Shown in pieces: positions 3,160 through 38,191 of a stretch of 59,976 bases of DNA; position 1 is the stretch's first letter, and each line of letters begins with the position of its first letter. The notes under the pieces were generated by a model, which was not told the origin of the DNA, ran no database searches, and saw only the letters and a list, made by a program, of their open reading frames with translations. Origin of the DNA: a virus (Duplodnaviria; Caudoviricetes). The translations under genes and the position numbers were made by a program. The DNA lies in IMG/VR virus record IMGVR_UViG_3300032116_000208, positions 1 to 59,976 of that record; one strand, written 5' to 3'.

Positions 3160-6100
3160 ATGCCTTTCGTACCACTCCGTACTGTTGTTGGAACCGATGA
3201 AGAAGATACTGGTTTCAAGCCGTTGCGGGATGTCTACTTGGGGCCAGCTCCGCAGCGTGGGGCCATTGCTGCCGGTCTTTCGGCTGGTGTAGACCAGCTT
3301 CAGGGGTTGGGTTATAGCGCTCTTGGTGGTGTTGCCGATATTGCGGGGGCAAGTGGAGCTCGTGATTGGGCCAACGAACAAGCCCGCCGTAATCAAGTTG
3401 ACGCTTCTGTTGGCGGTCGCCCCGACCTTGAGCGTATCGAAGATCAGTCGCTTGGTTCTGCGCTGCCGTACTTAGGCTACCAAGTTGCCAAACAAGTTCC
3501 AACGATGCTCGGCATTGCGGGCGCACAGCTTATCCCCGGCGCTGGCCAAGTTGCTGGCGCTGTAGGTCTTACGCGACTTGGTGCTGTTGCACCTCGTATG
3601 CTGGGCGGCGGCGGTTTGCAAGCTGGCTCTAGCGCTGCGGCACGTCGTGCCGCTTTGGCGCAGGGTGAAGTTTTTGGTACAGGCACGCTGGCTGGTTCTG
3701 CCATGGGTTTTGGCTCGCTTTATGGCGAGTCTGTTGAAGGTGGTGACCCAAGCCCATTTAAGTCTTTGGCGCTGGCTCCAATTTATGGCGCTGCTGAAGC
3801 TGTTCTTCCTGCTGTGTTGCAAGGCAGTTTGCGTGCGCCAGCTAGGTACTCCGGCAATATTGGTACTCGCATGGCTAAAGCGGGTGGGGTTGCTGGTGCG
3901 GGCGAAGCCTTAACCGAACTTGGCCAAAACGAACTTGAGATGGGTATGCGGTCAGACTTGACCGCCGAAGAAATGGCGTCTCGCCGCCTTAACGCAGCAG
4001 CAGCTGGCCTGATTGTTGGTGGTAGTTTGGGTACTGTTGGCGGTGTTCGTGGTCCACGACGCCCTGACACAGAGTCAGACCTGACTCAGCCATTGGATAC
4101 CACTACACGCCCAGACCCCAGCCAGTTTGTGACGCAAGACCAGACTGTCGGCCTGAAGAAATTCATTGATGTAAACACTGGGGTGGTGCGTCCATCCCGC
4201 AAAGACTATGAGAAACAGTTTGAGGCTGCGTTTAACGAGCCTAGTGGTCAGTTTGTTGCTGATGCTGCTACTGGCGTTGAACGTGAACTGACTGTCGGTG
4301 AGCTGATGCAGCGTGGCTCTACGGCCATGGACTTGACTCAGGACAAGCCTGCTGACACTGCTGCCGCAGCTACTGCGGCTACTAATGTAGCTACTACGCG
4401 TGATCCACGCGATGTGTTCTTGCGCGATGAGCTCAAGGTAATCCCGAACAACAATAGCCGTCAGCTGTTTACGCTGATGGAAGAGCAGGGTGTTGACCCT
4501 ACGTCCCCAGCCATGGTTCCTGTATGGAACTACGCCGCTGCAAAGTACATGACTCCAAGCCGTCTGACAAAGGCCACAGAGCTGATGGATGCAGCCATCA
4601 TTCAGTCCCGCAAGGAGGCACCAATTGGCACAGGAATTTCTACTGTACAGCAGCCTGCAGGAGGCGTGGGAGTCGGGGGCCCTGTCGTTCAAGGAAGTGT
4701 GGGAAATGCAGGACGCCCTGCTCCTGTCGCAGGAGCAATGGACGGAAGTGCCCCAGCAGCTGGAGCCCCACTTCAACAAGCTGGCATTCTTCCAGTCGCC
4801 CCCGGGCAACCATCTACCACTGTAACCACCGGAGCACCAAGTGGCCCTCAAGCCTCTCAAACCATCCAAACAGCGCCGCAAGGACAAACCGCTACCACCG
4901 TTCCAGCTGCCGCCCCAGTAAGGGCCAATACAACGCTGCGCTTGAACCAGCAGGAAAAGCTGCCCGGTGAAACCGACATTACCAACATCGCGGATATTGC
5001 CCGCATGACAGGTAACGCTGGTGGGATTGATGCTGTTCTGGAAGACGAGGCTGGCTTGCGTGCTGACCAACGCGACTTTACGGACGATGACCTCAACGCT
5101 GTGATTGAAGAGCAGGTAGGCAAAGGCAAGAACGCAGATCGTGACCGTCAGATTTTGCGTGCCTACATCACAGCACGTCGTGCTGTACCGAGCGGCTACA
5201 AGGGCAACATCGCCAAGGAAATCGCTGACTCGTTTGGCATCGCTGAATCGCGGGTACGTCAGATCGGCAACCCAGAAAAGCTGGCTGATATTGCAGTGTC
5301 CATGGGATTTGATCGCGCTCAGGTGTTTGATCGCTTGGGTATCCAGTCAGCCCAAAAAGCCTTGGCTACTGAGTTAGGCAAACTCGAAGGCGAACTGACA
5401 CGCCTGAAGGCCAAAGCCAAACCGACCAAAGCTGACATTGCTCGCATGGCAGAGCTGGATGAGCAGATTACTCGCATCAACGATGAAGTTGAAGCTGGCG
5501 ACATGGCCGCTGCGTTTAAAGAAGCTGGCATCGAAGGCGAAGCCGGGGAAGCGTTTGGCAACTTGGACGACGCTCGTGAATGGCAAAAGGCTAGCACTGC
5601 TGGTAGCCAGATGGCTGTTAAGTTGGTCTCCATTGCAGACACCATTGCTGAGTTGAAGACCGCTGCTGCGGAGTTGAATCAACTGGGTCTGGCCCAAGCT
5701 GAGGCTGCTGCCGCTGAGCGCATTAAAGAACTGACTGCCGAGTACCAAGCAATTGTGTCTGGCTACGAAGCCAAGCCAGAAGCTGCTGCTCCCAAGAAGG
5801 GCAAAGGTAAAGGCAAAGCTGCTGAGAAAGCCTCTGAAGAAAAAGACGCTGCCAAGGAAGCCGAAGCTGCCAAGTTCCGCGCCGAGCGTGCGGCCAAGCT
5901 GCAGGCTGACCGTAACGGCCTTGCCGTTGGCGATACTGTCAAGAACCCCAAGCTGGGCACTGGCGTGGTTAAGAGCTTCGCTGGCGATGGCGATGCAACC
6001 ACTGTTACTGTAGCGTTCCAGAGTGGGCAGACCAAAGAACTGTCAGTCAAACTGGCAAAACTGGAGAAAACCGATGCCGTTCAAGTCGAAAGCCCAGCAG

Positions 6101-9100
6101 GGGTATCTGTTCAGCCAAAAGCCGAAACTGGCGAAAAAGTGGGCCGACAAGTACGGCGTGCCCCAAAGCCTGCCGCAGAAGGTAAAGCCCAAGTCCCAGC
6201 CGTCATCCTCACCCAAGCCGAGCAAGCAGCCCAAGCGTGGGATGTAGTCGCTGCTGACTTCCCAGAGGCTCCCAAGTTTGCTGATCTGACCAAGGCCCAG
6301 CAGAACACATTCATTGGCTTCGGTGAAGGTAACTGGGAGCGTGGTGACGTTGAGCTTGAGCTGACCAAGTTGGCCCGCGCTGCTGCGCCTACGCAACGAG
6401 CTATACGTCTGCGCCACGGAACAACTGCAGCCAACAAGGCGATGATCGAAAAACTCGGTCACATGGACCCAGAAGGCGGTGAGCGCCAGTACACGTACTC
6501 TGAATTTGGTCGTAAAGCCGTGTACCTTACTCGCCCTGAAGGTTGGTGGTTGGACAAAGAAAAAGCCGCCGCTGGGCGTGCCGTTGTTTACGATTCCTAC
6601 GTGGACGTTGAACTGCCAAGCGATGCAAACGTAGTCACCATAAACAACATGGCTGACTTTGAAGCGTTGGCAAAACGCGTCGGCGAGTCCAGTGCAAAGT
6701 CGATGGCTAACAAGCTGGCTGTTGATGGTTTGGATTGGCTATCTCAAGCCAAAGAGCTTCGGTCTATCACGTTAGATCAGGCTGTCCAAAAGTACATACG
6801 CGAGCAGAAAGAAAGCGCCGCCAAGTACGGGGGCTTTGATACTAAGGGGGTCAACACGCTTGGCGAATTGGCGGACTTCCTAAATACCAACGTAAACAAT
6901 CAGTACACCCAAACAACAGAAGCTGAACTGCGTACGCGCATCCGCGACAACTGGCTTGACGCGAAGTCTTACGAACTAGACACGTTTGGCGAATCTGATG
7001 CAATGACACAGAAGCTGATTGACGCTGGGGTGGACGTTATTGACATAGCTCCAGACGCAGACGTTGGCGTTGCTGCAGATCAGGTTGTAGTGTTGCGCCC
7101 AGAACTGGTCAAACTTGCATCGGCTGTAAAACAGCAAGAGGCTTTCTTGCGCAAGTCGCGCCGCAGCGTTCGCACTGCTGACCAGAGCGGTGTGGAGTTT
7201 GAGTCTGTTGAGGCTTCGCTGGACGACCTGTCTAACTACTCCGAGGGCATTGCTGCTGGCATCCGTAGCCTGCGCGACGTTGACATGGGCAACGCTGTTG
7301 ACGCTATTGACTCATGGATGGTCACGTTCTCCCCAGTGTCGTGGGACGCCATCTACACCATGATCGACGGCAAGCGCACCATCATCTACAACGGTGTGAT
7401 TCTCAAGGACAAGGTTCTGTCTACTGTTGCTACTCTGCACGAAGTCGGCCATGGCATTGACGAGGTACAGGGCGGCGCTGGTAAGTTCTCTGGCGGTGCG
7501 GAGTTCAGGATGTCTCGGGTAAACGGCGAGCTGATGTCCATGCGCCCCGGCACGGTTGCAGACGAACTCTTGAACCACTGGGAAGATGCAAGCGAGACGT
7601 CAGCTTTGGGCGGTATGCTCAACTATCCGCTGGACATGACAGACCCGGAAAATCGCTCCCTGACGATGCAAGAGCTGCGTGAGGAAGTCTTTGCTCAGGT
7701 TTGGGCTTTCTCAAATCTGAACGGCGGCATGGATTACCTCCGTGATAACCTGCCCACGACACACGCTTTTATGGAGAAGGCACATGAACAAGTCAAAGCC
7801 ACAAACTACCAACGCGCCCAAGGTGCCCAGCAAGGTGCTCAGTCAGGACAAGTTCAAGCTGGACAGCAAAACGCGCAGCCTGCTGGGGCAGTTCTTAGAG
7901 CCAGCCGTCAAGCCAAACAAGGGCTGATCGACCGCAACATTGCCAAGCTGCCGAAGATGTCTCAGCAACCGGTACGTAACTTGGCCGGTGCTCTTGGTGA
8001 CATTGGAGGTGCTGGTCTGGACTACGTTGTGTTCACCAGTGACTTGGTCAAGCGTGCTGTTGCCGCTGGCCTGCCTGCTGCTCAGACTTTCTCCGACCGT
8101 CTTGCTTCGCGTAACGCCAAGGTCAGTGAAGAGGAACGCAAGATCGAAAAGATTGCAGACCGCTATGCGTCCATTGAGGACGACGCCAAGGGCAGTGGCC
8201 CCGGCTCGGTCAACGAGTTCTTGTTTGAGTCCACCCGCACAGGCAAGTGGGGCTATGGCAAGTTCCGTGACGCCAAGATGGGCGCTGCGTTCGATGCGTT
8301 GGGCCCCAAGGCTCAGCAGTTCGTCAAGGACGTGTTTGCCCATGGTGACGCCACGCTGTCCAACAAGAAGAAGATTGTCTTGGACGCAGCCAACTCTGAG
8401 TACGACGCCATGATTAAGGCAGCTCAGGACGCTGGTGACACCAAGACTGAGGCTACTCTCAAGGCTGAGAAAGCCGCTACGCTCAAGCGCTTTCAGACAC
8501 TGTTCCGCATCCGCGAGGGCATGCCTTATGCGCCCATCAAGCGCACTGGTTCGTATGTGGTAATCGGCGAGTCTGCTGAGTACCAAAAAGCCAAGGCTAA
8601 CAAAGACACCGCCACGCTCAAGAAGCTGGAGTCTGACCCAGACCATTACCATGTGTCGTTCACAGACACCAAGTGGCAAGCCCGTAGCCTGCGTGACAGA
8701 CTAGCAGAGCAAGGCGTGTTCACTGACCCGCAAGTTGTTTCTCGCTCTGAGTCCTTTGACGAGGCGTTCAGTGGTGAGGCCATGCTGCCAGCCCTGACAA
8801 AGATGCGTGCCGCTGTGGATCGCCGTGCTCAGGACTCTACTGGCAAGAAAGACCCGACTGCTGGCAAGCTGCTCAACATCATCAACCAGTTGTACTTGGA
8901 GGCGTTGGCTGAGGGTAGTGCTCGCAAGTCTGAGATGCGTCGTCGTGGTGTAGCCGGTGAAGTGGACATGCTCCAGTCGTTCACCCAGCAAGGTCGTGCC
9001 GATGCCAACTTCTTGGCCAGCGTTGAGTTTGAGCCTAAGATTCAGGATGCCTTGCAACAGATGCGTAACCAGTCACGCACTGGCGACCGCGAACGCAAGT

Positions 9101-10674
9101 CCGAAATCTTCGACGAGTTGACCAAGCGCTACGCAGGTACGCTGGACCCACAGCCAAGCCCGTTCATCAACGGTCTGACCAACATGGCGTCCAAGTTCTT
9201 CTTGGCCTCCAGCCCCGGCTACTACTTGCAGAACTTGACACAGCCGTTCATGATGTCCCTGCCTGCCATGGCAGGTCGTCACGATTACACCAAAGCTGCC
9301 GCTGAGCTGGCCAAGGCGTACGGTGAGTTGGGCCCACTGTTCAAGGATGTGAAGCTGTTCGACGAGCAGTTTGACTTCTCCAAGGTGCCTGCTGACGTGC
9401 GTAAAGCCATCAACGAGTTGGTCAACCAAGGCAAGATTGACATTGGTCTGGCCACTGAGATCAACGAGTACAAGGTAGAAGCCGACAACAAACTCAGCAA
9501 GTTTGCGCAGCGTTTGAACAAGGGCATGCGCTTGGCCGTGCAGAAAGTGGAAGCTACCAACCGCCTGTCTACTGCCATTGCTGCCTACCGTTTGGAGTTC
9601 GCCCGGACTAAGGACGCTGACAAGGCAACCCAGTACGCTGCTGACATCCTGACTGACACCCATGGTGACTACACAGCCTTCAACGCTCCTCGTGCGTTCA
9701 ACACCCAGTGGGGTAAGGTGGCTTTGCAGTTCCGCAAGTTCCAGTTGATTCAGATCGCGTTCTACTCCAAGCTGGTTCGTGACGCGTTCACCAATCCTGC
9801 CGAGCGTGCAGCAGCCATGAAGACTCTGGCCTATTCGCTGAGCCACACTGCCGTGTTCGCTGGCATGATGGGCTTGCCCGGCTACGCTGCCATTTCTGCA
9901 ATCTTGGGCTTCTTCGGTGACGAGGACGAGCCGTACGATCTGACTGCTGAAATGCGCAAGGCGCTTGGCCCTGAGTGGGCTAACATCATCATGCGTGGCG
10001 CTCCAACCGTTGTGGGTATGGACTTGTCCGGCAAGATCGGCGCTGGCAACATGCTGTCCATCATGCCATTCAGTGACGCTGACTTGAGCACCAACGCAGG
10101 TCGCGCCGAAGCTTTCGGTACATTGATTGGTGGTGCAGCTTTGGGGATGACATCCCGCATCATTGACGGCCTTGGCCTGATTGCCAGCGGTGACTACTAC
10201 AAGGGTGTTGAGCGTGTTATGCCAAAGGGTGTGTCCGACGCGCTCAAAGCTGCACGCCAAGGTGCTGAAGGTATGACTCGCCGCAACGGCGATGTGGTCT
10301 TGCCCGACAGTGAGATCAGCTCCCTCGACACAGTATTTACTGCGTTGGGTGTGCCTGCTGTAGAGCAGACTGTAACCTACGAGCGTCAGAACCGCATGCG
10401 CGATTTGACCAAGAACTTCCAAGACCGCACCACGCGTATCAAGAACGACTACGCCAAAGCTGTCCGCGAGAAGGACACTGCTGCCATGGCCGAAGCCCGC
10501 ACTGCATGGACTAAACTCCAGCAGGCTCGCCAGCGTAACGGCTTGACACCACAGCCAGTATCCAGCCTGCTGAAAGCACCGCAGGAACAGAAGGCTCGTG
10601 AGCAGCGCACCGTAGGTGGTGTACAGTACCGCGAAGGCCAGCGTAAACTGGCAGAATCCGTAGCAGCAGATTAA
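3160..10674 (+). CDS. Giant polyvalent internal virion protein (sigma4-like HTH, Tudor/SH3, ART-like, HExxH zincin, PLxRFG-like)
   Basis: 2504 aa; motifs EIADSFGIAESRVRQI, GDTVKNPKLGTGVV, RHGT..AVYLT, HEVGH..EEVFA, YAPIKRTGSY; follows the ejection genes. Confidence 0.8.
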   Translation: MPFVPLRTVVGTDEEDTGFKPLRDVYLGPAPQRGAIAAGLSAGVDQLQGLGYSALGGVADIAGASGARDWANEQARRNQVDASVGGRPDLERIEDQSLGSALPYLGYQVAKQVPTMLGIAGAQLIPGAGQVAGAVGLTRLGAVAPRMLGGGGLQAGSSAAARRAALAQGEVFGTGTLAGSAMGFGSLYGESVEGGDPSPFKSLALAPIYGAAEAVLPAVLQGSLRAPARYSGNIGTRMAKAGGVAGAGEALTELGQNELEMGMRSDLTAEEMASRRLNAAAAGLIVGGSLGTVGGVRGPRRPDTESDLTQPLDTTTRPDPSQFVTQDQTVGLKKFIDVNTGVVRPSRKDYEKQFEAAFNEPSGQFVADAATGVERELTVGELMQRGSTAMDLTQDKPADTAAAATAATNVATTRDPRDVFLRDELKVIPNNNSRQLFTLMEEQGVDPTSPAMVPVWNYAAAKYMTPSRLTKATELMDAAIIQSRKEAPIGTGISTVQQPAGGVGVGGPVVQGSVGNAGRPAPVAGAMDGSAPAAGAPLQQAGILPVAPGQPSTTVTTGAPSGPQASQTIQTAPQGQTATTVPAAAPVRANTTLRLNQQEKLPGETDITNIADIARMTGNAGGIDAVLEDEAGLRADQRDFTDDDLNAVIEEQVGKGKNADRDRQILRAYITARRAVPSGYKGNIAKEIADSFGIAESRVRQIGNPEKLADIAVSMGFDRAQVFDRLGIQSAQKALATELGKLEGELTRLKAKAKPTKADIARMAELDEQITRINDEVEAGDMAAAFKEAGIEGEAGEAFGNLDDAREWQKASTAGSQMAVKLVSIADTIAELKTAAAELNQLGLAQAEAAAAERIKELTAEYQAIVSGYEAKPEAAAPKKGKGKGKAAEKASEEKDAAKEAEAAKFRAERAAKLQADRNGLAVGDTVKNPKLGTGVVKSFAGDGDATTVTVAFQSGQTKELSVKLAKLEKTDAVQVESPAGVSVQPKAETGEKVGRQVRRAPKPAAEGKAQVPAVILTQAEQAAQAWDVVAADFPEAPKFADLTKAQQNTFIGFGEGNWERGDVELELTKLARAAAPTQRAIRLRHGTTAANKAMIEKLGHMDPEGGERQYTYSEFGRKAVYLTRPEGWWLDKEKAAAGRAVVYDSYVDVELPSDANVVTINNMADFEALAKRVGESSAKSMANKLAVDGLDWLSQAKELRSITLDQAVQKYIREQKESAAKYGGFDTKGVNTLGELADFLNTNVNNQYTQTTEAELRTRIRDNWLDAKSYELDTFGESDAMTQKLIDAGVDVIDIAPDADVGVAADQVVVLRPELVKLASAVKQQEAFLRKSRRSVRTADQSGVEFESVEASLDDLSNYSEGIAAGIRSLRDVDMGNAVDAIDSWMVTFSPVSWDAIYTMIDGKRTIIYNGVILKDKVLSTVATLHEVGHGIDEVQGGAGKFSGGAEFRMSRVNGELMSMRPGTVADELLNHWEDASETSALGGMLNYPLDMTDPENRSLTMQELREEVFAQVWAFSNLNGGMDYLRDNLPTTHAFMEKAHEQVKATNYQRAQGAQQGAQSGQVQAGQQNAQPAGAVLRASRQAKQGLIDRNIAKLPKMSQQPVRNLAGALGDIGGAGLDYVVFTSDLVKRAVAAGLPAAQTFSDRLASRNAKVSEEERKIEKIADRYASIEDDAKGSGPGSVNEFLFESTRTGKWGYGKFRDAKMGAAFDALGPKAQQFVKDVFAHGDATLSNKKKIVLDAANSEYDAMIKAAQDAGDTKTEATLKAEKAATLKRFQTLFRIREGMPYAPIKRTGSYVVIGESAEYQKAKANKDTATLKKLESDPDHYHVSFTDTKWQARSLRDRLAEQGVFTDPQVVSRSESFDEAFSGEAMLPALTKMRAAVDRRAQDSTGKKDPTAGKLLNIINQLYLEALAEGSARKSEMRRRGVAGEVDMLQSFTQQGRADANFLASVEFEPKIQDALQQMRNQSRTGDRERKSEIFDELTKRYAGTLDPQPSPFINGLTNMASKFFLASSPGYYLQNLTQPFMMSLPAMAGRHDYTKAAAELAKAYGELGPLFKDVKLFDEQFDFSKVPADVRKAINELVNQGKIDIGLATEINEYKVEADNKLSKFAQRLNKGMRLAVQKVEATNRLSTAIAAYRLEFARTKDADKATQYAADILTDTHGDYTAFNAPRAFNTQWGKVALQFRKFQLIQIAFYSKLVRDAFTNPAERAAAMKTLAYSLSHTAVFAGMMGLPGYAAISAILGFFGDEDEPYDLTAEMRKALGPEWANIIMRGAPTVVGMDLSGKIGAGNMLSIMPFSDADLSTNAGRAEAFGTLIGGAALGMTSRIIDGLGLIASGDYYKGVERVMPKGVSDALKAARQGAEGMTRRNGDVVLPDSEISSLDTVFTALGVPAVEQTVTYERQNRMRDLTKNFQDRTTRIKNDYAKAVREKDTAAMAEARTAWTKLQQARQRNGLTPQPVSSLLKAPQEQKAREQRTVGGVQYREGQRKLAESVAAD
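4625..4825 (+). CDS. Nested +1-frame ORF A (66 aa) in the giant gene
   Basis: AAGGAGG at 4612-4618, TTG start 6 nt later; globular-looking product over a low-complexity linker of the host gene. Confidence 0.6.
   Translation: MAQEFLLYSSLQEAWESGALSFKEVWEMQDALLLSQEQWTEVPQQLEPHFNKLAFFQSPPGNHLPL
6074..6247 (+). CDS. Nested +1-frame ORF B (57 aa, MPFKSKAQ-type basic protein)
   Basis: GGAG at 6063-6066, ATG 6074; N-terminus resembles small stand-alone basic phage proteins. Confidence 0.65.
   Translation: MPFKSKAQQGYLFSQKPKLAKKWADKYGVPQSLPQKVKPKSQPSSSPKPSKQPKRGM
7784..7927 (+). CDS. Nested +1-frame ORF C (47 aa)
   Basis: GGAGAAGG upstream, ATG 7784; overlies the Q/A/G linker after the zincin domain. 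Confidence 0.4.
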   Translation: MNKSKPQTTNAPKVPSKVLSQDKFKLDSKTRSLLGQFLEPAVKPNKG

Positions 10675-23589: not shown

Positions 23590-23792
23590 TCGTCTCTCCT
23601 AAAAGTTGGTAGGGGACACCAGTGTGTCCAGCCGTCTGAGTCTCGCCATGAGCCAAGCACTGCAACGCCCAAGCGTTTGTCGATCATCAGCATCTTCACG
23701 CTCTTTGGTGGTGGATACTCTTTGGCATCCAGCCACTTGTTGTTCACGTCCACCACAGCGAACTGGTCGTGGGTGAGCTTGATGTTGGTCAT
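23586..23792 (-). CDS. DUF551-like small protein
   Basis: W....PP...THWCPLP. Confidence 0.65.
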   Translation of the reverse strand: MTNIKLTHDQFAVVDVNNKWLDAKEYPPPKSVKMLMIDKRLGVAVLGSWRDSDGWTHWCPLPTFRRDE

Positions 23793-23974
23793 TTGATCTC
23801 CTCTATGCGTACTCTGACGCGGATTGGTACTGCTGTTATGTCACTGGTCTTCTCGACCCTCATGGCAACAACGGAAGCGTCTGCTCTTGTAGTGTAGAGA
23901 ATCGGAAGTCCACTAAGGCTGCGAAAGTTTCGGCCCCTGAGTTTGATCGCCCAAGCCTTGGTGTCTTTCTTCAT
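23789..23974 (-). CDS. Hypothetical protein
   Basis: MKKDTKAWAIK...VRVRIEE; ATGA-coupled. Confidence 0.65.
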   Translation of the reverse strand: MKKDTKAWAIKLRGRNFRSLSGLPILYTTRADASVVAMRVEKTSDITAVPIRVRVRIEEIK

Positions 23975-24150
23975 GACAACGACTTCCACTTGCTTTTGGG
24001 TTCATTGGCCCGCTCCATGTAGAAGTGAACCAAGAAGTTGAAGACCTGCGTGTAGGTCATGGTGATGCCCGTGTCGGCAGCTAAGCGGTCACGAATCTTG
24101 TCAATGTCTGTGCTCACCGGGATGGTGATGCGTTTGATCTTGTCGGTCAT
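23971..24150 (-). CDS. Small putative DNA-binding protein (RHH-like)
   Basis: AAGGAG RBS; KRITIPVS strand followed by two predicted helices. Confidence 0.55.
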   Translation of the reverse strand: MTDKIKRITIPVSTDIDKIRDRLAADTGITMTYTQVFNFLVHFYMERANEPKSKWKSLS

Positions 24151-24377
24151 GTGTTGCTCCTTGCTCGGATGGCATCTGCACAGTCCAAAGTAACACACTC
24201 ATAAAAAGATTCGCTGTCTAGCGACATTCGCTCAGGAGCGGGTAAGTCATCACACACCTTTGCACACGCCTCACGCTCGTCAGCACGGACAAGGGCTTCA
24301 AAGCGTTCAAGTCCTCGCGCATATACCGGCCCACCTACCAAACCAGCCTCCCGCGCCATTTCAATTACGGTCTTCAT
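24147..24377 (-). CDS. Hypothetical protein (EREACAK motif)
   Basis: LVRADEREACAKVC..CADAIRAR. Confidence 0.8.
   Translation of the reverse strand: MKTVIEMAREAGLVGGPVYARGLERFEALVRADEREACAKVCDDLPAPERMSLDSESFYECVTLDCADAIRARSNT
24255..24293. repeat. 39-bp direct repeat, copy 1
   Basis: Identical to 25081-25119; encodes LVRADEREACAKV. Confidence 0.95.
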
Positions 24378-34143: not shown

Positions 34144-34170
34144 GTATGTATACACACCTATAGGTGTGTA
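34144..34170. promoter_or_regulatory. Operator-like palindromes (GTATGTATACACAC overlapping perfect TACACACCTATAGGTGTGTA)
   Basis: 1-mismatch 14-mer at 34144-34157; 20-bp palindrome at 34151-34170. Confidence 0.65.
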
Positions 34171-34172
34171 GG

Positions 34173-34343
34173 TTATCTACTGAATCGTTCGGCCAAGTAT
34201 TCGCGGTATGCGAACTCGGGGTCGTCCATGTCCAATGGACTTGTGTCTGTTGAGGCCTCGAAAACGAACGGCTCATCGAGGGGTTCGTCCATGTGCGTAT
34301 ACACACGTTCGGTTGTTGGCAGGATGAAATAGTGTCGGGACAT
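34173..34343 (-). CDS. 56-aa acidic early protein
   Basis: AGGAG RBS; D/E-rich. Confidence 0.65.
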   Translation of the reverse strand: MSRHYFILPTTERVYTHMDEPLDEPFVFEASTDTSPLDMDDPEFAYREYLAERFSR

Positions 34344-34358
34344 GATGACTCCTATGGT

Positions 34359-34372
34359 GTGTGTATACACAC
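34359..34372. promoter_or_regulatory. Operator-like palindrome GTGTGTATACACAC
   Basis: Perfect copy just upstream of an RBS; variant at 34293-34306. Confidence 0.7.
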
Positions 34373-34373
34373 C

Positions 34374-34701
34374 TATCCAAGGTTGATGGGGTAATTAGAC
34401 AGAATTTATTGGGCTTGTCTAATTAGGTGGGCGCTCGAAACCCGCATGGATACTGGGCTAGCGGGGTGATGTTAAGGTTTACCCTTGTCGAATTATCCAA
34501 GTCGGAAAAAGGGGGTCAGGAATTTTAGGGGGCTTCATGATGTGTGGCGCTTGGCGCTTCATGCACGAACAAACACACGCATCGTCATGTGCATCCTAAA
34601 TACTTGGATAATTGGATAATTGTCTAATTGCAGATGTAACCCCTTGATTTTAAAGAGAAACCTAATTATCCAAGGGCAAAAGCCCCTTGGATAATTGGAT
34701 A
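34374..34701. repeat. Iteron-like AATTATCCAAG/TTGGATAA array with IHF consensus (candidate origin)
   Basis: Non-coding; several direct and inverted copies; AATCAAGGGGTTA on - at 34649-34637. Confidence 0.6.
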
Positions 34702-34706
34702 GTCAG

Positions 34707-34724
34707 ATGTGTGTATACACACAT
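34707..34724. promoter_or_regulatory. Operator-like palindrome ATGTGTGTATACACACAT
   Basis: 18-bp perfect palindrome. Confidence 0.7.
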
Positions 34725-35218
34725 TAGGCAGTGATAGCGGCTTGCTTGGCTTTGGCATCGGCAGAATACGCCTCAGCATCGGCAACCATGTCAGTGGCGA
34801 CTGCCTTGAGTTCCATCAATTTGGCCAGTGTCGCACCTGCCTTGAGTGCGCCAGTCTTTTTATCGGTAACCATACCGCCAGTCTTGGACAGCTTGGCCTT
34901 CATGATACGTGCCTCGAATTGGTCAGGCAGTGACTCGAAAGCCGCACGATTGGAGATAACCATTGGCTCACCGAGTTGTGCGGCAAAGTATTCGCCAACT
35001 GGACGATAGTTGCATGAAGGCCATGCGGCTTGCTTGGCCAGAGCTTGGACACCACCATTGGCGATGCCATTACGTGCGGCTACACCAAGTTTGCCCTTGG
35101 CATTGGCGAGCGCCATTTTGGTGTAAGGGCTTGAGTCTTGCACGACAGACAGCTGTCGCTCAGTCTTGGTTTTGCCAGTTACGTTGATGATTGCGGGAGT
35201 GTAAGTTGCGAGTTCCAT
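34724..35218 (-). CDS. First gene of the early arm, Ala/Lys-rich hypothetical protein
   Basis: CAACACAAGGA leader, start MELATY. Confidence 0.8.
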   Translation of the reverse strand: MELATYTPAIINVTGKTKTERQLSVVQDSSPYTKMALANAKGKLGVAARNGIANGGVQALAKQAAWPSCNYRPVGEYFAAQLGEPMVISNRAAFESLPDQFEARIMKAKLSKTGGMVTDKKTGALKAGATLAKLMELKAVATDMVADAEAYSADAKAKQAAITA

Positions 35219-35252
35219 GATATTTCCTTGTGTTGAATGATTGAACGGTGAC

Positions 35253-35770
35253 AATGCACCACATAGCCCACTGGTGCCAATGAGCTATAGGTTGAATTGG
35301 TTTTGCGACTTGCTGTTCTTGGTGTCGCCCGAGACCTCACCGGCCCTTGTTCATAGGTGACCGTTACCTGCGACCGTGATTCAACGGTGCGTCTGACTCT
35401 AGGGTTCTTGCCTAGTCCGTCCCGCAGATGCTCAGATACTCGGTTTTGTGGGTGGCCTAATGATTCGATCACGGGTTGTCTCTCGACAAAGCGTTCGCCC
35501 TGTGTGTTGCCCGCCAATGGACAGCGCACACTCAAGCGTTATCGGGTTAATTCGCCCCTTACCACAAACCCACCGAAGTGAGATGCGATTGCGTGCCCTC
35601 GACTATTCACACGCACCTATTCACGCCACTGAATAGGGATTCCAATACGAATTTTTAAAGACCGGATTCCATCAAAAGCCCCTTACCATGTGACCGCATC
35701 AACCCTGAGGTATCCGCACGCACCTGTCCCTAAGTCCAGCCGCTAGTCGATAAAGAACAATCTCACACGG
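35253..35770 (-). ncRNA. Putative large structured leader RNA
   Basis: No credible ORF; nested long-range helices, GAGA tetraloop, boxA-like motif. Confidence 0.5.
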
Positions 35771-35797
35771 AGCGAACGGTGCGATCACCGCTCAATG

Positions 35798-35848
35798 TAG
35801 GCAACCTTGATAACTCAGAGTCCCTACACAATAGGCAACCTTGATAAC
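35798..35848. repeat. 17-bp direct repeat TAGGCAACCTTGATAAC x2
   Basis: 35798-35814 and 35832-35848. Confidence 0.9.
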
Positions 35849-35936
35849 CGACCACCCCCCACAGGCCCCCCAACGGGCCACCCCGCCCCCCGACTGCTTA
35901 CGACGCGCTCAATCATCATGAGCAAAAAATCAAGAC

Positions 35937-36009
35937 GTGTGTATACACACCTGTTGCGTAAAAACCACAAAAAATACGAAAAAACCCGGTAGAATGTGTG
36001 TATACACAC
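35937..36009 (+). promoter_or_regulatory. Candidate late-arm promoter (-10 TAGAAT) flanked by two GTGTGTATACACAC palindromes
   Basis: Palindromes 35937-35950 and 35996-36009; TAGAAT 35990-35995; no consensus -35. Confidence 0.65.
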
Positions 36010-36025
36010 CTTTTAAGGACCAAAA

Positions 36026-36217
36026 ATGAAGCGCTGGAACCTGTTTTTGCCCCCCGAACTCATCGAAAAATACAAGCAAATGGCCACCAAAAAGGGCGTT
36101 TCGTCGGCAGAAATGGCCCGAATTGCCATGGAAAAGTACGCTCAGGCCGTGGAAAAAGCTAAAGCGCGAGGTGACGAGACGCAAAAACAGGCTGCGGAGA
36201 CTGCAAATGCTGGCTGA
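36026..36217 (+). CDS. Ribbon-helix-helix (Arc/CopG-like) regulator
   Basis: KRWNLFLP.ELIEKYK.MA.KKGVS.AEM.R.AM..Y; TAAGGA RBS. Confidence 0.85.
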   Translation: MKRWNLFLPPELIEKYKQMATKKGVSSAEMARIAMEKYAQAVEKAKARGDETQKQAAETANAG

Positions 36218-36719
36218 TGACACCCCAATGGACGATACGCCTCTGGAGTACAAGCCAAAAAACACCTCATTCCCGCAGATAAGCGAGGAGATGGTAGCCT
36301 CGGTAGCTTTGGGGCTGGAAGATGAGCTGATCGTGGCCAGTCGGCACGGTCTGTCGGTCGAGCAGTACCAAGAGTTGGCCGCGCAGCCGTGGTTTCAGCT
36401 CCAAATTCAGGTAAAACGGTCCGAGTACGAGAAAAATGGCGTCACGTTCAAGGCCAAGGCTGCATGGATGGCCGGGGAGTTGCTCGATCAGGTGTACGTC
36501 ACTGCGGCGTCCCAAGATGCCAGCTTGAACCAGAAGCACGAAGTCCTCAAGACGCTCATCAAGGCCGCAGGTCTGGAGCCCAAGGAGGAAAAAGTCAAGG
36601 ACACTGGGCCGGGATTCAGTATCAGCATCGACTTGGGAGGTGGCCAGTCCATATCCCTGAGCAACCAGCAGACCCTCACGCCGGTTACACTGGACGCAGA
36701 GGTCAAGGAGATTAAGTGA
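36207..36719 (+). CDS. terS: Putative terminase small subunit
   Basis: Immediately upstream of and overlapping TerL; helical with GFSISIDLG C-terminal strand. Confidence 0.6.
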   Translation: MLADDTPMDDTPLEYKPKNTSFPQISEEMVASVALGLEDELIVASRHGLSVEQYQELAAQPWFQLQIQVKRSEYEKNGVTFKAKAAWMAGELLDQVYVTAASQDASLNQKHEVLKTLIKAAGLEPKEEKVKDTGPGFSISIDLGGGQSISLSNQQTLTPVTLDAEVKEIK

Positions 36720-38191
36720 GCAGCACATACAAACCGACAGAGACCCAGCGGAACTTCATGCTGGATGAATCCTATGTTCGGGTGCTGGCTGGGCCCGTCG
36801 GTGGCGGTAAGTCCGTTACTTGCGTACATGAGCTGGTGCGTCTGGCCTGTGGCCAAGCGCCGAACGCCAAGGGTGTGCGCAGAACTCGGGCGATCATCGT
36901 GCGTAACACCGCCGACCAGCTGGCGCTGACGACACGTAAGACGGTGTTCGACTGGCTGCCGCCCGGTGAGGCTGGTATCTGGAAAGCCGTGGAGAAGACG
37001 TTTATCCTGATGGCCAAACTGCCAGATGGGACACAGGTTGAGTCGGAATGGATTTTTATCCCGTTGGATACGCCGGACGACGTGCGTAAGGCGCTGTCAC
37101 TGGAGACCACGTTCCTGTGGGGCAACGAGAGTCGAGAACTCAACAGCGAAGTTGTGGACGGCCTGCTGTCACGTCTGAACCGATATCCGTCAGCCAAGGA
37201 CGGGGGGCCCACCCGGTCGTGTGCGCTGTTCGACACCAACATGCCAGACGAGGACACGTGGTGGCACGACAAGATGGAGAACCCGCCGAGCAACTGGGCC
37301 ATACATAAGCAGCCTGCGGCGATCCTCAAGCCAGAGGTGTACCTTGAGCGGTTCGGCGAAGAGCCTGAAGAGGTGCTGCTGGACAAGGACGATAACGAGT
37401 GGGCGGTCAACCCCGAGTGCGACAACTACAACCACCTGCCCAAGCAGTACTACCCCAACATCATCCCGGGTAAGACTGAGGACTGGCTGCGGGTGTACCT
37501 GCGCTCGGAGTATGGGCGCAGCCTGTCCGGCACCCCGGTGTACGAGAAGACGTTCACGCATGAATTCCACGTATCCAAGGACAAGATCAAGGCTATACGC
37601 AGCGAAGAGTACCCGGTCATCATCGGTCTGGACTTCGGGCGCACTCCGGCAGCCGTGTTCAAGCAGCGCGACCCACGCGGGCGCGTAGTGACTCTGGCCG
37701 AGCTGACGTCGGAGAACATGGGCATCGAGACGTTCCTGCGGACGAAGCTGAATCCGTTCATTGCGAACAACATGCAGGGGTGCTCGTTCCTCGTAGCTCC
37801 TGACCCGGCTGGGTACGCCAAGCAGCAGCAAGGCGAGATGTCGTTGGTGGATATCGTCAAGCAGGCTGGGTTCAAATGTCAGCGACCACCAACAAACGAC
37901 CCGGAAAAGAGGATTCAGGCAGTTGAGCGCTTGCTTGTACAACAGTTGGAAGGTAAGGCGATGTACCTTATCGACCCGGGGTGTACCCAGCTCATCAAGG
38001 GTTTCCGGTACGGTTACCGGTACAAAATCAAAAAGTCCGGGGAGATGGAAGACAAGCCGGATAAGAACGCGTTCTCCCACGTCCACGACGCCAACCAGTA
38101 TGCCGATGCCATCATTGATATGAACGTCCGTGGGGCTACGGTTAACAACGCCCGACGCGAAATCAAGAAGTCCGGTTATTCGTACTCTTGA
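36716..38191 (+). CDS. terL: Terminase large subunit
   Basis: GPVGGGKS, IVRNT, NESRE, DTNMP, GLDFG, SHVHDANQY. Confidence 0.93.
   Translation: MSSTYKPTETQRNFMLDESYVRVLAGPVGGGKSVTCVHELVRLACGQAPNAKGVRRTRAIIVRNTADQLALTTRKTVFDWLPPGEAGIWKAVEKTFILMAKLPDGTQVESEWIFIPLDTPDDVRKALSLETTFLWGNESRELNSEVVDGLLSRLNRYPSAKDGGPTRSCALFDTNMPDEDTWWHDKMENPPSNWAIHKQPAAILKPEVYLERFGEEPEEVLLDKDDNEWAVNPECDNYNHLPKQYYPNIIPGKTEDWLRVYLRSEYGRSLSGTPVYEKTFTHEFHVSKDKIKAIRSEEYPVIIGLDFGRTPAAVFKQRDPRGRVVTLAELTSENMGIETFLRTKLNPFIANNMQGCSFLVAPDPAGYAKQQQGEMSLVDIVKQAGFKCQRPPTNDPEKRIQAVERLLVQQLEGKAMYLIDPGCTQLIKGFRYGYRYKIKKSGEMEDKPDKNAFSHVHDANQYADAIIDMNVRGATVNNARREIKKSGYSYS

Follow-up and report, generated by a model that had tools for sequence, protein, structure and literature searches.

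The minus strand of the virus record IMGVR_UViG_3300032116_000208 carries, at the head of the early gene arm, a structured non-coding RNA of about 520 nt that is not in Rfam. The window analysed here is this whole record, the complete 60 kb genome (59,976 nt) of an uncultured freshwater tailed phage with two gene arms, and the RNA lies in the 807-nt divergent gap between them, which extends from the first minus-strand gene (early1, ATG at 35218) to an RHH gene at 36026. Comparison among related phages shows a molecule that occurs in one copy per phage and in which purifying selection maintains the structure of every module. We regard the presence of a structured RNA on the minus strand as nearly certain, and its transcription as highly probable.

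A preliminary description of positions 35253-35770 had called this region the highly structured leader of the early arm, the largest gene-free stretch of a dense genome, and either an unrecognised large non-coding RNA or a put-like antiterminator. The gap is indeed the largest in the window: the sole comparable one among open reading frames (ORFs) of at least 90 aa, at 23590-24373, is occupied by a chain of 66-76-aa minus-strand ORFs. The designation as leader agrees with the position and sense of the RNA, and the proposal of a large unrecognised RNA is supported by the lack of any Rfam match, covariation confined to the minus strand, the lack of a conserved ORF, and contigs from RNA libraries that are confined to the RNA itself. 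Its bounds are better drawn at 35812-35291 than at 35770-35253.

A search of IMG/VR with the large terminase subunit (TerL) yielded 184 relatives among 186 candidate stretches, from which the best 80 were kept. Both genes flanking the gap were present in 19 of these 80 loci, with a gap of 697-886 nt in all 19; nucleotide identity across the gap ranged from 45 to 85%, as against 58-91% for the early1 protein (at least 72% in 17/19). Added searches with early1 and with a G-rich block upstream of the RNA raised the collection to 36 distinct leaders before early1, and the motif TTTAAAAATT (≤1 mismatch) was found in 33 of these, 392-497 nt before the start codon. The leaders are mosaic, with a widely common 5' part of ~220 nt followed by 300 nt that exist in at least two unrelated versions. 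The core pattern was matched in 20 IMG/VR contigs, while a covariance model of the central hairpins gave 34 matches across 100 sources, one copy per matching source and always in the sense of the early genes; its sole match in the window is at 35586-35682 on the minus strand. Leaders with the UUAAAAAUU motif stand before at least three unrelated first genes, and because the same invariant motif heads all of these, the RNA is linked to the start of the early arm rather than to early1. As to cultured phages, a blastn search of 50,697 phage records with 35100-36100 found nothing similar, and the nearest cultured TerL relatives, Rollin and RHph_TM3_14A (~35% identity), have another gene layout that lacks any comparable gap next to the terminase. 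In six loci (L021, L024, L031, L034, L045, L064) a different first gene (MEKAQ...) follows a third type of leader, of 440-530 nt; this leader has no UUAAAAAUU motif and contains a stretch, GGAUAGUCACACGCC, reminiscent of the loop and stem of hairpin Hc described below, and it may be related to the present RNA by divergence.

The evidence for structure comes from covariation. Pairs were counted on MAFFT alignments against two controls, namely helix partners slid by 1-3 columns and 500 shuffles, the latter scored as the number of shuffles reaching the observed count of double-change cells. RNAalifold on a global MAFFT alignment of the 19 mosaic leaders found almost nothing, and the modules were aligned by type instead. 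In the 5' domain (35812-35650, minus strand, n = 25), 94.0% of cells were paired versus 27-52% with slid partners, and double changes occurred at 14 of 21 pairs versus 2-8. The central hairpins gave 92% versus 33-54% and 11/17 versus 0-2 in a first alignment (n = 22), and 90.4% versus 35-54% and 14/16 versus 0-4 when 28 distinct sequences were aligned to the model. For the 3' half of the type seen in the window (n = 8), 98.7% of cells were paired versus 34-38%, with double changes at 22 of 97 pairs versus 0-2; for the alternative 3' half (n = 14) the corresponding values were 96.6% versus 31-41% and 36/75 versus 4-10. The shuffle figure was 0/500 in each of the five alignments. Overall, at least 13 helices of the RNA covary, with compensatory changes at more than 50 pairs across two module types. 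G.U cells outnumbered A.C cells by 73 to 4 and by 79 to 2 (152 to 6 in total), and the consensus fold was better on the minus than on the plus strand (-19.1 vs -7.0 and -107.5 vs -94.5 kcal/mol). The folded molecule is therefore minus-strand RNA and not DNA.

The fold of the single sequence is less telling. Folding better than shuffled sequence, a check proposed in the preliminary description, was not observed: for 35223-35790 the minimum free energy (MFE) had z scores of -0.60 (minus strand) and -0.76 (plus strand), and for 35291-35812 the z score was -0.27. Nor are complementary segments of 5-8 nt above chance by themselves, since about eight perfect 7-nt complements are expected in 518 nt (an arithmetic estimate). 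The structure is nonetheless real, because relatives preserve the pairing by compensatory changes.

These alignments also allowed the helices of the preliminary description to be judged individually. All 16 strings that it quoted were found where it had placed them on the minus strand, and its 11-mer UGGUAAGGGGC has exactly two copies in the window, against 0.02 expected. Its overall fold held for five helices, was wrong for one junction helix and lacked support for the pair of helices with which domain 1 had been closed. Among the five, the 8-bp hairpin at 35637-35616 corresponds to Hb, with double changes at all seven modelled pairs; UUUGUGG/CCACAAA is replaced by UUUGCAG/CUGCAAA in one relative, with a further G-C to A-U switch at columns 18-162 of the module; CUAGG/CCUAG and ACCGU/ACGGU have three double-change pairs each; and UUGUC/GACAA is kept in relatives with one-sided changes only. 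The proposed junction helix CUGCG/CGCAG was broken in 3 of 40 cells and compensated in none, while the G-to-A change that breaks it in two sequences is compensated, by C-to-U in CGCA, in the pairing CGCA (35587-84)/UGCG (35426-23). Of the two closing helices, GUGAGAU/AUCUCAC is completely formed in 6 of 17 leaders with the 5' motif and is thus not general, and it shows no covariation; AUCUCAC has other possible partners in UGAG (35434-31, consensus fold, invariant) or in GUGGG, as a CUCAC-UUCG-GUGGG hairpin recognised by eye with one-sided changes only. The second, UCGACUA/UAGUCGA, a candidate long-range pairing with the Hc loop, forms in 12 leaders with wobble-compatible changes and no covariation, whereas 12 others have UGCCUAG instead and the same loop unchanged.

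The RNA consists of a conserved 5' core (35792-35591; helices H0, H2, H3, Hb and Hc) and an exchangeable 3' half (Table 1). The core also has invariant unpaired motifs, namely UUAAAAAUU, three loops (AUCG, GUGGCG and AAUAGUCGA) and a tandem G.A. An AUCG-loop hairpin also follows the second of two direct repeats in more distant leaders. In H3, the loop is UACG or UCCG in relatives; at the internal positions, 23 of the 25 sequences have G.A and 19 have A.G. The helix directly before the invariant motif (35674-35659) is weak, with just 79-86% of cells paired. The loop of Hb is kept as GUGGCG, GUGACG or GUAGCG. Palindromic loops were considered as kissing sites and dropped; 4-nt palindromes are expected by chance in 14-nt loops, and one relative breaks the palindrome of Hc.

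The 3' half is equally base-paired and is exchanged as whole modules between related phages. Its multi-branch domain is closed by CGCA/UGCG and by UGG.UUUGUGG/CCACAAA.CCG (35572-35562 with 35451-35441) and contains hairpins at 35538-35496 and 35494-35471; double changes fall at columns 1-182, 18-162, 24-156, 25-155, 37-145, 44/45/46-138/137/136, 75/76-100/99, 84-93 and 111-132. In 14 other leaders this domain is replaced by a different one that covaries likewise. The hairpin at 35370..35390 has a counterpart in other leaders, CCCACUG-GAAAGA-CAGUGGG, and the loop ACCAAGAACAGCAA is kept in both leader types.

Table 1 Positions of the leader RNA, its helices and motifs, and adjoining elements in the window; double changes are given as pairs with compensatory changes.
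Feature	Position	Strand	Evidence and remarks
G-rich block GGGGGGCCUGUGGGGGG, upstream of the RNA	35855..35871	-	DNA element distinct from the RNA and conserved more widely
Two direct repeats GUUAUCAAGGUUGCCUA	35848-35832 and 35814-35798	-	17 nt each
Whole structured non-coding RNA	35291..35812	-	~522 nt; contig bounds and covariation along length
H0, 7-bp 5' hairpin AGCGGUG/CACCGUU, conserved loop AUCG	35775..35792	-	Double changes 4/7 pairs; 96% cells paired, n = 25
H2, stem GCGGC/GGUGC, conserved loop (A)CUNNGGGA	35720..35743	-	Double changes 3/5 pairs; 95.9% cells paired
H3, GC/GC + tandem G.A/A.G + ACC-UCAG-GGU	35696..35717	-	Double changes 5/5 pairs, e.g. ACC/GGU vs GGUU/AACC
Invariant single-stranded motif UUUAAAAAUU	35650..35659	-	Nine bases UUAAAAAUU invariant in 25, 29 and 22 aligned sequences
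Hb, 8-bp hairpin CCUAUUCA-GUGGCG-UGAAUAGG	35616..35637	-	Double changes 7/7 modelled pairs, 28 distinct sequences
Hc, stem GCGUG/CACGC, conserved 14-nt loop UGAAUAGUCGAGGG	35591..35614	-	Double changes 5/5 pairs; 99.3% cells paired
Variable multi-branch domain, window type	35423..35587	-	RNAalifold, 8 sequences
Hairpin CUAGG/CCUAG	35399..35415	-	Double changes 3/5 pairs; 100% cells paired
Hairpin GCACCGU/ACGGU.GC	35370..35390	-	Double changes 3/7 pairs; 100% cells paired
Hairpin CGGUC/GGCCG	35341..35363	-	1 double-change pair, 2 one-sided; 100% cells paired
Hairpin GGU..GCGAC/GUCGC..ACC, loop ACCAAGAACAGCAA	35299..35336	-	Double changes 2/5 inner pairs
Terminal 15-bp hairpin, between RNA and ribosome-binding site	35258..35292	-	99.2% cells paired; 1 double-change pair
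early1, first early gene	34724..35218	-	164 aa; AAGGAA 7 nt before ATG

Searches for a known identity of the region were negative. At gathering thresholds, Rfam 15 (with families including GOLLD, ROOL, OLE, HEARO, raiA, riboswitches and ribozymes) gave no match anywhere in the window, so that the cmscan check suggested earlier leaves the RNA uncatalogued. A permissive Rfam scan (E up to 10) of 35100-36100 returned two miRNA rows only, at chance-level E values of 2.1 and 9.3, and these lie over palindromes at 35933-36020, outside the RNA. The best antisense target in the phage's own genome was a match of 13 nt (E 0.38), again at chance level. A CsrA-type sponge was dropped after inspection by eye; GGA is not kept in homologous loops. 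A literature search found no description of the RNA. The conserved ORF that, according to the preliminary description, might explain the region was not found either, as no frame is shared across the leaders.

The stretch is represented, as a small share, in six riverine metatranscriptome runs, of which four were examined. In all four, contigs of 460-523 nt, ~90% identical to the window, lay wholly inside the leader, spanning 35291-35778, 35291-35779, 35291-35812 and 35352-35810. Contig ends recurred at 35810-35812 in runs X15, X16 and X18 and at 35291 in X16, X17 and X18, none with a loose end, which we grade as a weak hint of real ends. Contigs of mosaic relatives matched only 35667-35810, or 35667-35773 in one run. 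The early1 contig of another relative continued for 14 nt beyond 35238 and then ran into sequencing adapter, indicating a fragment end near 35252; the terminal 15-bp hairpin lies exactly between the end of the leader contigs and this fragment end. Within 34700-36100, RNA-library cover was absent over 35828-36015, and early1 was uncovered in three runs; such gaps were not used as evidence, and contig depths were not used to rank expression.

As regards the genomic setting, DNA runs containing the stretch carried the source labels freshwater, lake-water and 'fungus' metagenome. The gap is a divergent control region adjoining the small and large terminase genes. To one side of it, the plus-strand late arm begins with the RHH gene and continues with a small-terminase-like gene, TerL (36716-38191), an SU10-type portal, tail fibres and a giant protein of 2504 aa. 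To the other, the minus-strand early and replication arm forms a one-strand gene array from 35218 to 11759 (~24 kb of early and middle genes), with products that include an ATPase, an HNH endonuclease, an exonuclease, a family-A DNA polymerase, an SNF2 helicase and a DUF927 primase-helicase; ARAGORN found no tRNA in the 59,976-nt genome. No family or relative of early1 was found in PHROG, Pfam or PDB, and the Atlas search gave no convincing neighbour. The second early gene (34176-34343, minus strand) encodes ~55 aa rich in Asp and Glu (MSRHYFILPTTERVYTHMDEPLDEPFVFEASTDTSPLDMDDPEF...), and its position and composition are reminiscent of small acidic anti-restriction or DNA-mimic proteins, for which it is a candidate. 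Of the 2504-aa protein (3160-10674, plus strand), only the last 600 residues could be assigned to a family, that of the DarB-like giant virion proteins in PHROGs; its first 1900 residues matched nothing in Pfam or PDB. The idea that it is a virion RNA polymerase was set aside, since Pfam gave it no family, PHROGs showed a DarB-like C-terminus alone, and searching the PDB returned no polymerase.

Several DNA elements surround the RNA. The first position of the second direct repeat is where the RNA-library contigs start. The type of direct repeat varies among relatives (at least five sequences), with both copies alike within each phage, and this pattern suggests a phage-specific DNA-binding protein. 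The 17-nt G-rich pattern recurs nearly unchanged in 66 IMG/VR stretches, some with quite different downstream sequence, and in the window it closes a run of G-tracts on the minus strand (35855-35900; G6, G4, G6, G6, ending in GGGGGGCCUGUGGGGGG). This run looks quadruplex-forming on the RNA-like strand and could be an origin, packaging or promoter-upstream element. The possibility that genome ends lie at the block was dropped; locus edges are not contig ends. Upstream of the block stand two copies of a 14-bp palindrome, GTGTGTATACACAC, which has eight matches in the window (≤2 mismatches), seven of them in 34144-36009, versus 0.2 expected. Perfect or near-perfect copies are at 34144-34157, 34293-34306, 34359-34372, 34709-34722, 35937-35950 and 35996-36009; two lie 15-16 nt before start codons (36026 and 34343), and the palindrome is kept in relatives. 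It probably serves as operator for the RHH (CopG-like) protein encoded next to it, or else as a promoter element. Behind early1, a gene-free stretch of 350 nt (34371-34723), conserved in relatives, contains palindromes, an inverted repeat built of TTATCCAAGG (also written AATTATCCAAGG) and tandem 8-nt iterons, which read ATTATCCA in the window and ATTAGACA in some relatives and are DnaA-box-like. It is a candidate replication origin or regulator-binding array. A distant relative (L131) has a perfect TTATCCACA beside the G-rich block.

The RNA works as a folded RNA, not as DNA or protein. It would be the first product transcribed in the leftward early arm, co-transcribed with the first early gene, and the leader would then be severed from the early message at the terminal hairpin, in the style of T7 early RNA and RNase III; cleavage at this hairpin is suggested by the ends of the leader contigs together with the adapter-tagged end of the early1 contig. 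Once freed, the RNA would persist as a compact particle, with its conserved loops binding a protein partner early in infection, as the invariant loops and unpaired motifs suggest, and its target would be either the machinery of transcription or translation, in cis, or a host factor, in trans. As a whole, this reading of a cut-off leader that acts as a folded, protein-binding RNA falls, in our judgement, just on the probable side. For a discrete processed RNA species, considered separately, the case is evenly balanced, and any specific function, taken by itself, rates as unlikely. We lean slightly towards a released, stable RNA over cis action. In its most far-reaching form, which is possible but doubtful, the leader would represent a new class of large ornate RNA, the first infection product, cut free to become a trans-acting particle that sequesters or re-programmes a host factor, which could be a polymerase, a ribonuclease, the ribosome or a defence sensor. 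In that case the 5' core would be the working part, and the swapping of 3' modules the trace of an arms race with the host.

A number of observations weigh against this reading. Each alifold structure was counted on the alignment that had produced it, and this inflates the paired share, though it does not affect the excess of double changes; only eight related sequences underlie the 3' half of the window type; and the MFE of the single sequence is at the level of dinucleotide shuffles (z -0.27 to -0.76) and was not used as support. Contigs convey neither strand, true ends nor expression level, RNA libraries can carry DNA, and contig ends may be branch points in the assembly between co-occurring strains. 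No sigma-70-like promoter was found in 34600-36100, which leaves the 5' end unexplained, and no shared -10 element before the contig starts was found by eye. RNase III usually needs ~20 pairs, and the terminal hairpin is shorter, at 15. Finally, some phages with the G-rich block have a TATAAT promoter followed by a gene after ~150 nt, with no long leader; because these manage without it, the long RNA is an accessory and not a necessity of this layout.

The main competitor is a put-like antiterminator acting in cis, in which the nascent 5' stem-loops would bind the host polymerase that is transcribing them and allow it to read through terminators along the ~24-kb early and middle arm. The RNA does head a long one-strand array (35218 down to 11759), its conserved part is the ~200-nt 5' core, no terminator separates the leader from early1, and a scan of 20 larger proteins recognised no phage RNA polymerase, so that the host polymerase would have to transcribe the whole arm. 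A terminator-like 13-bp hairpin after the first gene (34696-34664) would offer a target, but it is also the inverted repeat of the recurring DNA motif TTATCCAAGG amid iterons and may be a protein-binding site. Moreover, put RNAs measure ~70 nt as against ~520 nt here, with the additional 300 nt also under structural selection, and a leader cut off as the contigs hint could not remain tethered to polymerase. We consider this explanation rather unlikely. A role as replication transcript, whereby a leader-template hybrid would prime the family-A DNA polymerase or transcription would activate a nearby origin, we hold to be improbable. The points in its favour are circumstantial: the size is similar to that of ColE1 RNA II, a plasmid primer transcript of ~550 nt; the phage has a family-A polymerase and an exonuclease; the G-rich block and direct repeats lie upstream and the iteron-rich, DnaA-box-like region downstream of early1; the sole invariant motif is AT-rich and often begins with GATC; and there is no terminator at the 3' contig end, 35291. 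However, the phage's own DUF927 primase-helicase makes transcript priming unnecessary, the G-rich block is upstream of the RNA-library contigs, and the iterons are ~570 nt past the end of the RNA.

Two further explanations would remove the RNA altogether. Conserved pairing could reflect cruciforms or single-strand DNA structures of an origin, a packaging site or a promoter array, in keeping with a divergent control region beside the terminase genes and with the direct repeats and GTGTGTATACACAC palindromes nearby. The pairing is strand-specific, however, and duplex symmetry would not yield a bias of 152 G.U to 6 A.C; the minus strand gives the better consensus fold, loops of the UNCG type and tandem G.A are motifs of RNA, and the RNA-library contigs cover exactly the leader stretch, all of which makes a DNA-level element very improbable. 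Still less credible is a missed coding gene or set of small peptides, or a fast-evolving spacer with chance helices. Every leader does allow ORFs of 54-131 codons (stop to stop), a 74-aa antisense ORF on the plus strand (35357-35581) recurs in six close relatives, and the folding energy of the single sequence is at chance level. Yet the longest open frame varies in both frame and strand among 33 leaders, with none common to them; the antisense ORF has no third-position bias (28, 21 and 27 variable columns among 74, 75 and 74 at the three codon positions) and its frame is broken in 2 of 8 sequences; and double changes that keep pairs exceed every control (0/500 shuffles; slid 0-10) in five alignments.

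Among known systems, the folded leader is a large structured phage RNA outside the Rfam families, new, and closest in kind to GOLLD (RF01998), ROOL (RF03087) and a non-coding RNA of Vibrio phage ICP1. Like GOLLD and ROOL, it is several hundred nucleotides long, elaborately paired, covarying and phage-borne, with a function that is not known, and it has the size and structure typical of that kind (>400 nt, here ~522; multi-domain, covarying and non-coding). GOLLD has been described as comprising one universally conserved and one less conserved part (PMC12286853), a division that the RNA of the window shares, and as accumulating during lytic growth (PMC7567579). The Rfam scans nevertheless revealed no match in sequence or structure to either family. 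GOLLD and ROOL are usually near tRNA islands, whereas this genome has no tRNA, and unlike them the present RNA heads the early arm directly before a ribosome-binding site. They also form pseudoknots and homo-oligomeric assemblies, and the likeness drawn here is one of secondary structure alone. As reported for Vibrio phage ICP1, an abundant ~800-nt non-coding RNA is likewise a large non-coding transcript of a lytic phage from a gene-free space of ~1 kb, but it lies by the lysis genes and not at the start of the early arm, and we found no sequence relation (PMC7567579). An intergenic survey of IMG/VR is described as yielding 8495 candidate structured RNAs of 29-151 nt, from the same data source and by the same method, covariation, as used here; its text, so far as accessible, describes no candidate as a ~500-nt leader, and single hairpins or sub-domains of the present RNA may be among its candidates (PMC10690425).

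With two other systems the likeness is one of position only. The put RNAs of phage HK022 are cis-acting antiterminators of ~70 nt with two stem-loops that need no protein factors. They share with the leader the early-arm position, the sense of the operon and stem-loops with conserved loops; they lie directly behind an early promoter, at the head of a long operon read by host polymerase, and have conserved loops and bulges. The leader is about seven times longer, has exchangeable 3' modules and no known sequence relation to put, and is possibly cut from the message. In T7, the leader of the early RNA is released by RNase III at a site before gene 0.3, and here too a non-coding stretch of several hundred nucleotides ends at a hairpin just before the first early gene. 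The T7 leader is severed at its hairpin, whereas cleavage in the present phage is suggested by contig ends only, and the T7 leader is not known as a conserved, covarying multi-domain fold.

To our knowledge, few classes of conserved structured RNA longer than 400 nt exist in bacteria and phages, each tied to unusual biology, and we know of no other structured leader in a phage early operon that approaches this one in size. Its fold is well determined, and as the first RNA made from the early arm it has a clear place in the programme of infection. The combination of a fixed core with swappable domains amounts to a natural modular design, suited to domain swaps. If the RNA does act as a particle in trans, placing large structured RNAs at the head of early operons would be a strategy to which phages resort repeatedly; and if it conditions the host polymerase or decoys a host factor, it would constitute a new RNA-based mechanism of host take-over in abundant freshwater phages.

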